Shown: positions 48,517-52,839 of the stretch, in pieces | How the letters are laid out: each line of letters begins with the position of its first letter | How positions within the stretch are numbered: position 1 is the stretch's first letter | Assembly (NCBI GenBank): GCA_965213925.1 | Contig: OZ243927.1 | Location: 640,001-704,000 of the forward strand | DNA length: 64,000 nucleotides | Source of the DNA: Trueperaceae bacterium | Lineage (GTDB): Bacteria > Deinococcota > Deinococci > Deinococcales > Trueperaceae | Reading direction: 5' to 3' | Translations under genes and position numbers: made by a program | The notes under the pieces: model-generated | What the model was told of the DNA's origin: nothing | The model's database searches: none | What the model saw: the letters and a program-made list of their open reading frames with translations, nothing else

Positions 48517-49257
48517 TTATACGTAGCCCACTTCTGAACGAGATCGGTCTGCTATAACCTCTGCGAGTAGAGGATCGTACGAGAGGTAATCTGCCAATGC
48601 TAATTTAATATCTGGATGCGCCTTCTGCGCCGTCTCGATCGCTTCTGGCAAGTCGTCTGCGACGTGTCCACCGAACTGTAAGAAGTAGGGCACAGCTACG
48701 ATTTGAGCCACCTTCTTCTCTGCGAGCATCTGAACGCCTTCAGCGATGTTAGGCTCGTTGATCTCCATGAAACTCACCTGAACCGCTCTGTAAGTTGAGC
48801 GCTCGCGGATAGCTTCGGCGACTCTGTAAATGGGCGCGTTCGCCTCGGCGTGGGGCGTGCCGTGCGCCATAAGGAGCAAAGCGCAGTCGTCTTCAGTGCG
48901 CGTCGCCGCTGAACGGTCCAGGACCATCTGGACGAGCGCGGGGTGGTACTCGAAAGCGTCCGCAATACTAAACGTGAGCGTTGGATGAGCAATTCTAGCC
49001 TCTTCGATGAGTTTGGGTAGGATACGTTTAACGTAAAACCCTGAAATCAGGAAGTAAGGCTGAACCGCGATATGTGTCGCGCCTTTGCGGACGCAGCGCT
49101 CAACCGCGTCCGCTACGGTGGGCCTACTGAAATTCAAAAAGCCTGCTGTAGCGATCGGCGCGACGCCCTGCTTGCGTAAAAGCGCCGCCAAGCGAATCAT
49201 CGACGCCCCCGACGCTTGGCGGAGGCTGCCGTGTCCGACTAAAACGACCGCGTTCAT
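48517..49257 (-). CDS. sirohydrochlorin chelatase (SirB/CbiX family)
   Basis: LVGHGS, MAHGT, PYFL.FGGHV; duplicated CbiX domains. Confidence 0.88.
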
Positions 49258-50087
49258 AGCGCGGCGCTAAGAAGGTCTGACGCAAGCTCTGCGCTTTCCG
49301 CAACGCCTAAATCAACGTCTAAATCGAACCAGCGCAGTTCGGAGCGCAGCCGCACGACGTCGCCGACGACGAGCGTGGCGGGCGCTCTGAGTCCAGCTTC
49401 GCGGACGTTCGCAGCGATGGTCTCTAAGGTCCCCTCCACCGTCTCCTGCTGAGGCGTCGTTCCCCAGCGCACCATCGCTGCGGGCGTGCTAGGCGAGCGA
49501 CCCGCTTTGATGAGTTCTTCGGTGATCGCCCCTATCCTCCCCACCCCCATCAAAATAACGAGCGTGTCCACCCCCGCTAGCGCCCGCCAGTCATGCCCCG
49601 ATTCTCCTTTAGCCGGGTCTTCGTGTCCCGCCACAATCGCCACCGACGCTGCTATGTTGCGGTGCGTGACCGGAATCCCGGCGTACGCGGGCGCAGCCAC
49701 TGCTGACGAGATGCCCGGTACGATTTCAAAAGGGATGTTCGCCTCGCAGAGCGCGAACGCCTCTTCGCCGCCGCGCCCGAAGATGAAGGGGTCGCCGCCC
49801 TTGAGCCGCACCACATTGCGCCCGAGTGTCGCCCGCTGTACCAGGAGCGTATTGATGGCGTCTTGCGAGTACGACGGCTGAACACCGTGCTTGCCCACGT
49901 AGATAAGTTCGGCGTCGGCGCGGCATTCTTGCAGCAGCTTAGGATTGACGAGGCGGTCATAAGCGACGACGTCGGCGTTTTGCAAGCGGCGCAAGCCCTT
50001 GACGGTCATAAGCTCGGGGTCGCCCGGACCTGCGCCGACGAGCGAGACGAAGCCTACTGGTGAGTTGGCTGGAGGGGGGTAAGACAT
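49254..50087 (-). CDS. cobA: uroporphyrinogen-III C-methyltransferase
   Basis: [35 protein letters not shown]. Confidence 0.94.
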
Positions 50088-50134
50088 GTCCTCCTTTATA
50101 CTCCAAAAGTTTACAAAAGATGTCAGCTATGTAC

Positions 50135-50164
50135 TTGACATAAATTGTCACTTACCTGTAGCCT
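50135..50164 (+). promoter_or_regulatory. putative sigma70 promoter of the sulfite-reduction operon
   Basis: TTGACA (50135-50140), 18 nt, TAGCCT (50159-50164). Confidence 0.5.
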
Positions 50165-50242
50165 CGGAGTCATTGAAGAGGTCACCTCGCACGTAGACTT
50201 GAAAGCGCTGCGGGAGTTGCAGGAGCACGAAGGGAAGCGTGG

Positions 50243-50326
50243 ATGAAGAAACTCGTTTTAGTAGACAACAGCGTATCGGCGGTAGCCCGGACCTTCTCCT
50301 GTTGTCGCTCCCTCTGCTGTTCCTGA
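50243..50326 (+). CDS. putative Cys-rich leader peptide (27 aa)
   Basis: MKKLVLVDNSVSAVARTFSCCRSLCCS*; purine-rich GAAGGGAAG upstream; 94 nt before sulfite reductase. Confidence 0.65.
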   Translation: MKKLVLVDNSVSAVARTFSCCRSLCCS

Positions 50327-50420
50327 TTGCTGATTTTTAGCTCTCAACCTATCCAGACTGACCCAACCCCAGACTGACCCAACCTAAGCAAACAAACCTC
50401 TTAATCTTTAGGGATGCTCT

Positions 50421-52196
50421 ATGCCTGACACCAAATCCACTAAGCCCACTAAACCTAAGCGCACGCACAAGCCCAGCGTCGAAGAGATTAAAGTTGCCAG
50501 CCGCTTTTTGAGCCAGGGCGTACAAGAGCAGCTCGACGCCCCTACTGACAACGTGGACGAAACCGGCTACCAGCTCCTCAAGTTCTCGGGTATCTATCAG
50601 CAAGACGACCGCGACCAGCGCAAGCAACGTCGTAAAGAGGGCAAGGACCGCGCTTACTCCTTCATGGTGCGCTCGAAAGCGCCTGCGGGCATCCTCTCCG
50701 CGGAGCAGTACTTGGTCCACGACAGGCTCTGCGACTCGCACGGCAACGGTACGATGCGCTTCACCACGCGCCAGGGTATCCAGCTTCATGGTGTCGTCAA
50801 GGGCGACCTCAAACCGCTCATCCAAGAACTCAACCACGCTTTAGTCACGACGCTCGCCGCCTGCGGTGATGTGAACCGCAATGTCATGGGCTGCCCCGCG
50901 CCCGAGAAAGACCGCGAGCACGCGCTGATCGATCAGGTGTGCCGCGAGATCGAGGCGCACCTCTTACCGCGTAGCACGGCGTATTACGACCTCTGGATCG
51001 ACGGCGAAAAGCAGCAAATCCCGGTTGCACCCGCCGTCTCGGAGGCGTCCCTCTCAGGCGACGAAGAGGAGCCGATTTACGGCAAGACCTACCTGCCGCG
51101 CAAGTTCAAAATCGGGGTGGCGTTTCCGCACGACAACTGCGTGGACGTGTTCACCCAAGACATCGGCATCGTGCCGGTTTTAGAGGGTGACACGCTCAGG
51201 GGCTACAATATCCTAGTGGGCGGCGGCATGGGCATGAGCCACACCGATGACACGACCTTCCCGCGTCTCGCGGAGCCTCTAGGCTTCGTTGCGCCGAACG
51301 CGCTCATCACTACCCTCGAAGCCATCGTCACTGTCCAGCGCGATTTCGGCAACCGCGAGAACCGCAAGCGGGCGCGGATGAAATATTTGGTGGACGAGTG
51401 GGGCATCGAGAAGTTTCGCGCTACCGTCCAGGAGCGCCTCAGCCACGAGATTCAACCTTGGGCCCAAGTCGGCGAATTCAGCGTAGACGACCACCTAGGC
51501 TGGCGCGAGCAGGGCGACGGGCGCTACTACTTTGGCGTCCCGGTGGAGAACGGGCGCATCAAGGACGAGGGCGAGATGCGGCTGCGCTCCGGCTTGCGTG
51601 CCATTATCGAGCGTTTCCGCTGCGAAGTGCGCATCACGGCGCAGCACAACCTCTTGCTCACGAATTTGAAGGCGGAGGACGAGGAGACGCTGCGGACGAT
51701 GCTACGTGAGTATGGCATCCGCACAAAAGAAGACATTACCAAAGCGCGGCGCTACGCTATCGCGTGCCCGGCGCTGCCGACGTGCAGCTTGGCGCTAGCC
51801 GAATCCGAGCGGGTCATGCCCTCAGTCATTGACGGGCTCGAGTCTCAACTCGACACTTTAGGCTTAGGAGGCGAAGACATCGTCATCCGCATGACCGGCT
51901 GCCCCAACGGGTGCGCCCGCCCCCACACCGCCGAACTCGCCTTTATCGGGCGTTCGCCGGGTAAGTATAAGCTCTACGTGGGCGGCGCGTTTAACGGCAC
52001 GCGCTTAGCGCAGGAGTACGCTGACTTAGTCGACCAAGACGACATCCTGCCGACCGTCACGCCACTTTTCAAGCTCTGGAAAGAGCAGCGCGAGCCGGAT
52101 GAGCACTTCGGGGACTTCTGCTACCGTCAAGGGGTGTCTACCCTGCAAGCAGCAACTCAGTCAGAGGCTCGAGAGGTCTCCCTGAGCCATGACTAA
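50421..52196 (+). CDS. cysI: sulfite reductase hemoprotein (CysI/Sir type)
   Basis: [42 protein letters not shown]. Confidence 0.9.
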
Positions 52197-52839
52197 CGCC
52201 TTGAACGTCACCGACCCTAAAGAGGTCGTCGCCTGGGCGCTAGAACGCTACCCCAACGCGATGATGACGAGCGGCTTTAACCTCAACGGTACGGTTCTGC
52301 TCGACTTCGCGGTGCGCGCAGGCTTTCGGGGCGAAGTCGTCTTTATCGACACCCTCTCGCACTTTCCCGAAACCCTGGCAACCCGCAACGCCATCGCCGC
52401 ACGCTACCCCGAAATCACCTTGACAACGCTTCAGCCTGCGCTACCTAAGAGCGCCCTACCTGCGTGCGGCACCGCGGACTGCTGCCAGGTCCGCAAGTTA
52501 GAGCCTCTACGCCTCTATCTCGCCGAAAAACAGCCGAGCGCGCTCCTCAGCGCCCGCAGCCGCTTTCAGAGCGAGACGAGAGCGCAGCTCAACACGGTAG
52601 AGGACAGCGGCGACTACGTCAAGGTGAATCCGCTGGCGCACCTCTCACGTGAAGATTTAGAGGCTTACGCCCGCGAAAACGACCTCCCCGTCAATCCGCT
52701 TTACTGGCAGGGCTTCTTGAGCATCGGCTGCGCACCCATGACGCGGGCGGTGCGCGAGGGCGAAGACATGCGAGCGGGGCGCTGGGAAGGGCAGGAGAAG
52801 ACGGAGTGCGGGCTGTGGTACGGGGATAAAGCGCTCTAG
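52189..52839 (+). CDS. cysH: APS/PAPS reductase
   Basis: FIDT..HFPET, CCQVRK, SIGC, RAGRW, KTECGL. Confidence 0.88.

Follow-up and report, generated by a model that had tools for sequence, protein, structure and literature searches.

A candidate cysteine-sensing leader ORF upstream of cysI-cysH in a Trueperaceae genome

The closest described relatives of the element considered here are short leader open reading frames (ORFs) that carry cysteine codons. In Deinococcus deserti, 14 leaderless leader peptides were predicted by de Groot et al. (2014), and one of them, Deide_16409, is a 10-residue peptide (MTALCCPSTR) with the transcription start at its ATG, for which transcription attenuation of cysS was proposed (PMC4007540). 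The leader-peptide list of that paper contains no sulfite-reductase leader. Mycobacteria carry polycysteine leaderless ORFs, among them Ms5788A, and in this system two consecutive Cys codons sufficed (Canestrari et al. 2020; 10.1101/834739). A third case, uORFC-8-2, is an upstream ORF (uORF) before Rhodobacterales cysS (PMC8632094). A survey of the literature on leader peptides and attenuation returned only these three examples. Here, we describe an unannotated 27-codon ORF that ends in two tandem pairs of Cys codons and precedes the sulfite reductase gene cysI and the adjoining cysH in a Trueperaceae bacterium (genome G000). The window analyzed is the whole 64,000-nt stretch G000:C1:640001-704000, taken from the 4.58-Mb contig C1 (GenBank OZ243927.1), and positions below are those of the window unless a contig is named. 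A preliminary description of this DNA had proposed a cysteine-sensing attenuator at this site. From the sequence comparisons reported below, we put the probability that the ORF is a Cys-tRNA-sensing leader ORF of cysI-cysH at roughly 0.55.

The resemblance to each described system is partial. The D. deserti cysS leader belongs to the same phylum, has tandem Cys codons (two Cys in 10 codons) and leads a cysteine-related gene; the G000 ORF, unlike that leaderless peptide, is Shine-Dalgarno-led, has 27 codons and four Cys, and stands before cysI-cysH (PMC4007540). Like the mycobacterial ORFs, it is an unannotated ORF with consecutive Cys codons toward its end, it precedes cysteine-pathway genes, and its distribution is patchy. 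Unlike them, its start is predicted not to be leaderless, and only 5 nt complement the cysI ribosome-binding site (10.1101/834739). The Rhodobacterales uORF is conserved, also has tandem Cys codons (two), and was read as ribosome-mediated attenuation; it controls cysS and forms part of a motif in which two stems are conserved and a U-run closes an intrinsic terminator, features not found in the G000 leader (PMC8632094). As in attenuators of the trp/his/leu type, the predicted leader of an operon that serves synthesis of the same amino acid contains a short ORF with a cluster of cognate codons beyond chance, whereas the intrinsic terminator that those systems have between leader ORF and first gene was not found in G000.

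The leader ORF and its cysteine codons

The four Cys codons occupy positions 20, 21, 25, and 26 of 27, which places all of them in the last 8 codons, near the stop (Table 1). Sequence and translation both bore out the ORF and its tandem Cys pairs as first described. Cys accounts for 0.6% of codons in the long ORFs of G000. Three of the four leader codons are TGT, the rarer of the two (972 TGT and 2696 TGC in the genome's long ORFs), and the TGY triplets within the ORF are all in frame (4 in frame, 0 out of frame). When the 249-nt leader was shuffled with dinucleotide composition preserved, 18 of 20,000 shuffles produced an ORF in which 8 codons held four or more Cys, and genome-wide, 8 of 15,999 intergenic ORFs of 8 to 60 codons reached the same density. 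The Shine-Dalgarno core of the leader ORF, AGGGA, is identical to that of cysI, and the match is equally good. The predicted transcription start lies about 70 nt upstream of the ATG at 50243, and translation would thus be Shine-Dalgarno-led rather than leaderless.

Two considerations temper the force of these counts. The Cys region is a T/G/C low-complexity sequence that readily yields TGY triplets, and very many windows were scanned, so that a 1-in-1000 event before some cys operon is expected by chance. Sequence variation adds little on either side: the sole variant inside the ORF, 50266 C>T, is a synonymous GAC to GAT change that keeps a G-U pair, and it is one data point (contigs from one sample). 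A related organism's contig has 198 nt where G000 has 272 nt, between 50173 and 50446. An origin of the second Cys pair in a 15-nt in-frame duplication was also considered and is unsupported (11/21 identities at offset 15).

Cysteine-codon leaders in the family and in other phyla

The cysS gene of G000 (G000:C1:3677528-3678988, minus strand) offers a positive control within the genome. Its leader consists of TAGACT, 9 nt, and then MMFKVHTERCCKAA*, which matches the published D. deserti cysS leader peptide. The preliminary description had stated that it knew of no such system in the Deinococcota; this was wrong, since the cysS leader was published in 2014 (PMC4007540). A short ORF with Arg-Cys encoded as CGA TGT occurs upstream of cysS in 11/11 family genomes examined (G000 and 10 others; L211-L220), in G121 only in a more distal ORF. 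Typical ends of these leaders are ...RCC*, ...RCFCS*, ...RCWFC..., and ...QRC*; for G140 and G046, the start codon was chosen by us among those listed. Three family cysS leaders have a single Cys, so a real member of the class can be that sparse. CGA makes up 6.3% of G000 Arg codons and stands before just 7 of the 3668 Cys codons in long ORFs. CGA is decoded slowly, and ahead of a Cys codon, it may act as a built-in brake that sharpens Cys sensing. As a separate observation, the g43 cysS leaders contain a UCUCC complementary to the cysS GGAGA, with a spacer of only ~40 nt. Because such ORFs stand before cysI more often than chance predicts (see below) and the family uses Cys-codon leaders, we read the cysI leader ORF as a probable Cys-tRNA sensor.

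A cysI gene of this kind is present in 12 of 128 family genomes. Two congeners of G000, G001 and G002, have CysI proteins 88% and 86% identical to its own, and the other cysI-bearing genus is represented by five usable genomes (G138, G140, G141, G142, and G143). A metagenome scan for closer relatives turned up no CysI above 54% identity, and three Trueperaceae/Deinococcales records, at 59 to 65%, came from a genome scan. At the place corresponding to the G000 ORF, G001 has VKRSSQPMFALSLPLGARCSC*, with 2 Cys, the ending RCSC*, and a spaced AAAGGA; G002 has VNGIQKPLLIQSVSLRTRCLLPNLLS*, with 1 Cys and without a spaced Shine-Dalgarno sequence. In the other genus, the cysI-leader ORF begins 6 nt past the -10 hexamer in 5/5 genomes, the leaderless geometry known from Deinococcus (PMC4007540), and the ORFs contain 2, 2, 2, 1, and 1 Cys, with RCC* in G140, ARCR* in G138, GCRSSFSCPSL* in G141, and a single Cys in each of G142 and G143. 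An in-frame CGA TGT near the ORF end was found in the cysI leaders of G001, G002, G138, and G140 (L002, L003, L191, and L193; 4/8), and this shared dicodon ties the family's cysI-leader ORFs to the cysS type. In G140, G141, and G143 (L193, L195, and L194), the predicted folds join codons 2-6 of the probably leaderless ORF to the Shine-Dalgarno sequence and the start codon of cysI (GGAGGCGCGC), an arrangement that suggests translational control of cysI in that genus. Among the distant Deinococcota sulfite/nitrite reductase homologues (L011-L025), no convincing uORF was detected, and several of the ORF picks lay on the wrong strand.

In light of these comparisons, the ORF is very unlikely to code for a small, stable, Cys-rich protein with its own function, for example, one that handles metal or iron-sulfur for the siroheme/4Fe-4S enzyme CysI. 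Such a protein would agree with the CC-x3-CC arrangement of the four Cys and with the adjoining metalloenzyme genes, but the sequence is unconserved even within the genus, the homologous ORFs have just one or two Cys, and the 27 residues include no hydrophobic core or recognizable signal.

Poly-Cys uORFs also precede cysI in other phyla. From metagenomes and genomes, 167 cysI loci were gathered, and the 146 whose cysI ORF reached 400 codons and whose upstream sequence reached 150 nt were kept (21 dropped). At 7 of these 146 loci, a uORF on the sense strand within 400 nt of cysI has four or more Cys among 8 codons, compared to 0/146 in the antisense control. About 5% of cysI genes therefore have such an ORF against ~0.1% expected by chance, a difference that favors function. 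The seven loci represent about five lineages, with L049, L052, and L062 near-identical. Folding placed a strong hairpin and then a U-run in three of the lineages (L049:1238-1451, L053:1154-1386, and L055:577-740); examples of uORFs with this arrangement, at cysI or fused cysH-cysI loci, include ...GGACCCCGACCARQ..., ...AMCCCALMH..., and ...MCCCSGAC.... A Chloroflexota-type group (L041, L042, L044, L123, L124, and L139) has a conserved C-terminal CxxC(C)IC[RM]*. The uORFs of other phyla have the same target gene as the G000 ORF and lie in the sense leader, 135-230 nt before cysI, as it does, and they differ in that three lineages have the strong hairpin and U-run that G000 is without. There is no sequence homology between them and the G000 ORF, which points to independent origins.

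Within G000, the pattern does not extend across the sulfur genes. Neither sat nor cysK is preceded by a Cys-rich uORF, which argues against a regulon-wide pattern; no cysE reached the family cut-off, and cysS apart, a conserved Cys uORF was found at none of the other sulfur genes examined. The region upstream of cysK holds a perfect hairpin of considerable length at a distance of ~100 nt, GGACTGAGTACTGAGT...ACTCAGTACTCAGTCC (G000:C1:554130-554200); it could be the terminator of the preceding unit or a leader element. Genome-wide screens of G000 for small ORFs that are Cys-rich or end in CC or RC returned mostly noise. One candidate, MTSRATACAVALCC, is in fact a terminator hairpin and T-run read as codons, and another, MLSTRCCF, precedes a Big_9/PKD protein. 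The 11-codon MDVCCATNACC*, with four Cys (L201:2226-2261, plus strand; G000:C1:242625-242660), lies ~210 nt before a generic 605-aa ABC exporter (ABC_membrane and ABC_tran). VTSVWMCMCC* (or MCMCC*; L223:1850-1882, minus strand; G000:C1:4330331-4330363) stands ~80 nt before an SLC13/CitMHS permease of 589 aa that has TrkA_C domains and matches Na_sulph_symp. This mini-ORF was rejected, being absent from G001 and G002, where just the preceding AAAGGCGGTAGGGT is conserved.

Several features of the relatives weigh against a cysteine sensor at cysI. The number of Cys in the genus runs 4 (G000), 2 (G001), and 1 (G002), and the expectation of a conserved Cys-rich uORF was accordingly borne out by half: Cys-containing ORFs do occur in the relatives, without a constant Cys run. 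The leader has diverged with large indels and is hardly alignable among the three congeners, unlike the promoter/operator block. The homology of the start codons is ambiguous, with MAFFT placing the GTG of G001 on a GGG within the G000 ribosome-binding site; in a by-eye alignment of the leaders, GAGCACG..AAGGRAA..RTG AAG lines up. TGY triplets are enriched in frame only in the uORFs of the genus (7 in frame versus 3 out); they number 8 in frame versus 14 out in the other genus, and over all eight family uORFs, 15 in frame versus 17 in the two other frames, without clear enrichment. The cysI ORF of G000 also lacks both CGA TGT (it has TCC TGT TGT CGC and CTC TGC TGT TCC) and the leaderless start.

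These observations are what would be expected of a chance ORF in a long, fast-evolving, pyrimidine/TG-rich leader, with control exerted only at initiation by a palindrome-binding protein and the C-rich tract merely keeping the ribosome-binding site unstructured. That explanation is unlikely on balance and still deserves serious weight. It would account for strong conservation between the genes being confined to the promoter/operator block, with related palindromes in other genera, for the dwindling Cys run, for RNA structures at chance level (see below), for the lack of in-frame TGY enrichment across the family, and for sat and cysK without such an ORF; the MCMCC mini-ORF, absent from the congeners, shows that such ORFs arise in G000 unconserved. 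Against it stand the shuffle probability of 0.0009, the location at an operon where such ORFs recur in other phyla (7/146 versus 0/146), the good ribosome-binding site, the RCSC* ending at the corresponding place in G001, and a CGA TGT signature held in common with cysS leaders that look bona fide.

RNA pairings, the C-rich spacer, and the proposed output step

The preliminary description had reported two RNA pairings, and these fared less well than the ORF itself. The perfect 8-nt repeat at 50264-50271/50299-50306 was recovered by a repeat search and is also present in the predicted fold. By our own estimate, ~0.2 perfect 8-mer inverted repeats are expected in ~230 nt, and the repeat is not statistically special. 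The pairing of 50220-50239 with 50306-50325 does occur in the minimum-free-energy fold; as a switch, it is at chance level, and it is not kept in G001. Comparison with shuffled sequences gave no support to an RNA switch here. The fold of 50200-50425 has a z-score of +1.19, with 181/200 shuffles at least as stable, and the hairpin at 50216-50330 has a z-score of -1.49, with 17/200 shuffles at least as stable. The duplex between the ribosome-binding-site arm and the Cys arm was calculated at -28.1 kcal/mol; shuffling the partner gave a mean of -26.1, and 29% of the shuffles were as good. For a candidate duplex that would mask the C-rich tract, the value was -22.0 kcal/mol; shuffling the tract gave a mean of -25.2, and 82% of the shuffles were as good. 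Constrained folds that mimic a stalled ribosome yielded alternative pairings, no better than those obtained with shuffled partners. The proposed RNA switch was thus not upheld by folding. The case for a Cys-sensing leader retains its codon cluster, the cysS control, the Cys-containing ORFs of relatives, and the other phyla, and loses the specific pairings.

A scan of 49900-50600 found no hairpin-plus-T-run terminator. At L049, the terminator scan missed a bulged hairpin, which was confirmed through folding. The only U-run, 50335-50339, sits 9 nt beyond the end of the predicted hairpin. Together with a composition count, the scan of 49900-50600 agrees with the earlier report of a C-rich, G-poor tract without a U-tailed terminator. 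Counting the two strands of the 4.58-Mb contig, just 146 regions match this spacer in being so rich in C and poor in G (top 0.02% of windows), and G001, G002, and most of the other genus's genomes have a similar C-rich tract 5' of the cysI ribosome-binding site. Within the spacer, a 16-nt duplication was seen that is peculiar to G000 and makes the C-rich tract longer. From the stop of the ORF to cysI are 94 nt, and the C-rich tract starts 17 nt past the stop. Within the Cys region, only UCCCU (50310-50314) is complementary to the cysI ribosome-binding site, AGGGA (50410-50414), which would give 5 bp over a distance of 95 nt; the predicted folds have this UCCCU paired instead with the leader ORF's ribosome-binding site. 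The genome has rho (Rho_RNA_bind, 90 bits; G000:C1:1304402-1304614).

Leader ORFs coupled to Rho are reviewed in PMC12360218: in tnaC, speFL, and cruR, an adjacent Rho site is shielded, and in mgtL and corL, refolding masks or exposes one. Like the uORF-dependent Rho attenuators described there, the G000 leader has a uORF and then an untranslated C-rich stretch, without an intrinsic terminator, in a genome with rho. In tnaC and speFL, ribosomes stall at the stop codon, directly next to the Rho loading site (PMC12360218); in G000, by contrast, the tract starts only after the 17-nt gap.

For a cysteine-sensing leader, we infer translation, stalling, and the whole output step as follows. Transcription would begin at ~50172, with a DNA-binding regulator setting initiation and the leader ORF adding a layer of control. 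Ribosomes would load at GAAGGGAAG/ATG and translate the leader ORF. With ample Cys-tRNA, both Cys pairs would be passed, the peptide released at the UGA at 50324-50326, and 94 nt of C-rich RNA left untranslated; transcription would then be cut short before or early in cysI, with Rho as the likeliest agent. With scarce Cys-tRNA, a stall at codons 20-21 or 25-26 would alter the leader, and more polymerases or ribosomes would reach cysI.

If the ORF does sense cysteine, premature termination in the spacer by Rho is about an even proposition as the output. It is our first choice, given that no intrinsic terminator was found, that rho is present, and that the 94-nt spacer has a strong excess of C and few G. 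Regulated access to the cysI ribosome-binding site is a distinctly less probable second choice, favored by the mycobacterial precedent and the folds of the other genus and weakened by the mere 5-nt complement, and some other output is less probable again. Two points run against the proposed mechanism. By the usual footprint, a ribosome stalled at the Cys codons reaches ~50335, and the C-rich tract runs from 50343; since the footprint falls short of the tract, simple shielding of the tnaC kind does not fit. Stalling, moreover, ordinarily favors Rho rather than opposing it.

The same architecture raises the alternative that the ORF is translated and influences cysI, but not through Cys-tRNA levels: translation as such might open the leader or keep Rho off, or the nascent peptide might sense a ligand, metal, or redox state, as proposed for the CXXC peptide of CruR. 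The ribosome-binding site and 3' end of the ORF form the two arms of the predicted hairpin, which any translation would open, and tnaC, speFL, and cruR stall in a ligand-dependent manner at or near the stop codon (PMC12360218). We nevertheless regard this alternative as improbable. The peptide is unconserved between congeners, contrary to what an arrest peptide needing specific tunnel contacts would show; with the non-Cys residues unconserved, comparative support goes no further than the architecture, and the Cys codon itself is the only feature that recurs in the relatives and in the cysS leaders.

Under the cysteine-sensing reading, it is tempting, and rather doubtful, to suppose that in the Trueperaceae a single cysteine-sensing module without a terminator serves both cysS and cysI-cysH. 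This module would consist of a very short ORF, often leaderless, with Cys codons at its end, usually preceded by CGA as a brake, and then a C-rich, G-poor spacer, and it would act via Rho or through access to the ribosome-binding site instead of a hairpin terminator. The four-Cys version in G000 would then be a recently remodeled, more sensitive copy.

Setting of the locus and implications

Upstream of the ORF, the TTGACA hexamer of the promoter named in the preliminary description was located. The surrounding block, 50096-50175, contains the predicted divergent cobA/cysI promoter and is nearly invariant across the three species of the genus. A promoter consensus scan made no call here, and the -10 hexamer matches at just 3/6 positions; its counterpart in the other genus is TAGACT or TAGAGT. 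The transcription start would lie near 50171-50173. Palindromes of the form TTGAYA-N5-TRTCAA, related to the operator-like elements in Table 1, occur upstream of cysI in other Trueperaceae genera, with two perfect copies in L198. Their conservation suggests that a DNA-binding regulator also acts on cysI-cysH, with the leader ORF as a second layer. The idea of a wider operator regulon was dropped: the genome has 23 sites that match the strict pattern TGAYA-N5-TRTCA, and the neighbors of four sites (TetR/MarR, OsmC/RHH, MIP, and a solute-binding protein) are unrelated to sulfur.

The intergenic region between cysI and the minus-strand tetrapyrrole methylase/CbiX pair is 333 nt long. Pfam matches agree with the flanking genes named earlier, with NIR_SIR in CysI and PAPS reductase in CysH on the plus strand. 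A search of 49000-51500 against Rfam at a permissive threshold gave nothing beyond two chance-level snoRNA matches. Read by eye (50088-50110), the methyltransferase gene on the minus strand has TATAAA, 7 nt (GGAGGAC), and then the ATG at 50087. Leaderless mRNAs are common in Deinococcus, and this divergent mRNA may be leaderless as well.

Table 1. Coordinates of the leader ORF, its surroundings, and the cysS leader used for comparison
Feature	Position	Strand	Details
CbiX gene	48517-49257	-	after the methyltransferase gene; Pfam CbiX 2.3e-49
Divergent uroporphyrinogen-III methyltransferase gene (cobA/cysG-type)	49254-50087	-	siroheme branch; Pfam TP_methylase 7.8e-53
Operator-like half-palindrome TTTACAAAAGATGTCAG	50110-50126
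Operator-like half-palindrome TTGACATAAATTGTCAC	50135-50151		overlaps the -35 hexamer
Predicted promoter	50135-50140 / 50159-50164	+	TTGACA, 18-nt spacer, TAGCCT
Shine-Dalgarno-like sequence of the leader ORF	50229-50237	+	GAAGGGAAG; 5-7 nt to ATG depending on core
Leader ORF	50243-50326	+	27 codons; MKKLVLVDNSVSAVARTFSCCRSLCCS*; stop TGA 50324-50326
8-nt inverted repeat	50264-50271 / 50299-50306	+	GACAACAG / CTGTTGTC; 100% complementary; 3' arm over the first Cys pair
Cys20-Cys21	50300-50305	+	TGT TGT
Cys25-Cys26	50315-50320	+	TGC TGT
C-rich, G-poor spacer	50343-50408	+	C 26 and G 5 of 66; candidate Rho loading site
Perfect 16-nt tandem repeat	50353-50368 / 50369-50384		unit CCAGACTGACCCAACC; within the C-rich spacer
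cysI ribosome-binding site	50410-50414	+	AGGGA
cysI, assimilatory sulfite reductase hemoprotein	50421-52196	+	591 aa; Pfam NIR_SIR 1.2e-52, NIR_SIR_ferr 2.1e-29
cysH, PAPS/APS reductase	52189-52839	+	216 aa; 8-nt overlap with cysI end; Pfam PAPS_reduct 4.3e-32
cysS leader peptide	L209:3031-3075 = G000:C1:3679091-3679135	-	MMFKVHTERCCKAA*; Cys-Cys; unannotated; 102 nt before cysS

To our knowledge, little has been published on the regulation of sulfur assimilation in the Deinococcota. Leader ORFs with Cys codons are a known kind of element, already predicted in this phylum for cysS, and the one before cysI-cysH would be a new example in the group, unusual in that no terminator was found and in its Shine-Dalgarno-led start. 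Annotation pipelines overlook such ORFs, and a positive control in the same genome, here the cysS leader, helps to judge the candidates. The CGA-UGU dicodon in the cysS and cysI leaders of the family provides a concrete, mutationally testable hypothesis on how the sensitivity of such sensors is tuned. If the cysteine-sensing reading is correct, a case without a classical terminator would let Rho-linked or translational output be tested in an amino-acid-codon leader, and ribosome-based cysteine sensing in the Deinococcota would extend from cysS to the reductive sulfate assimilation branch.

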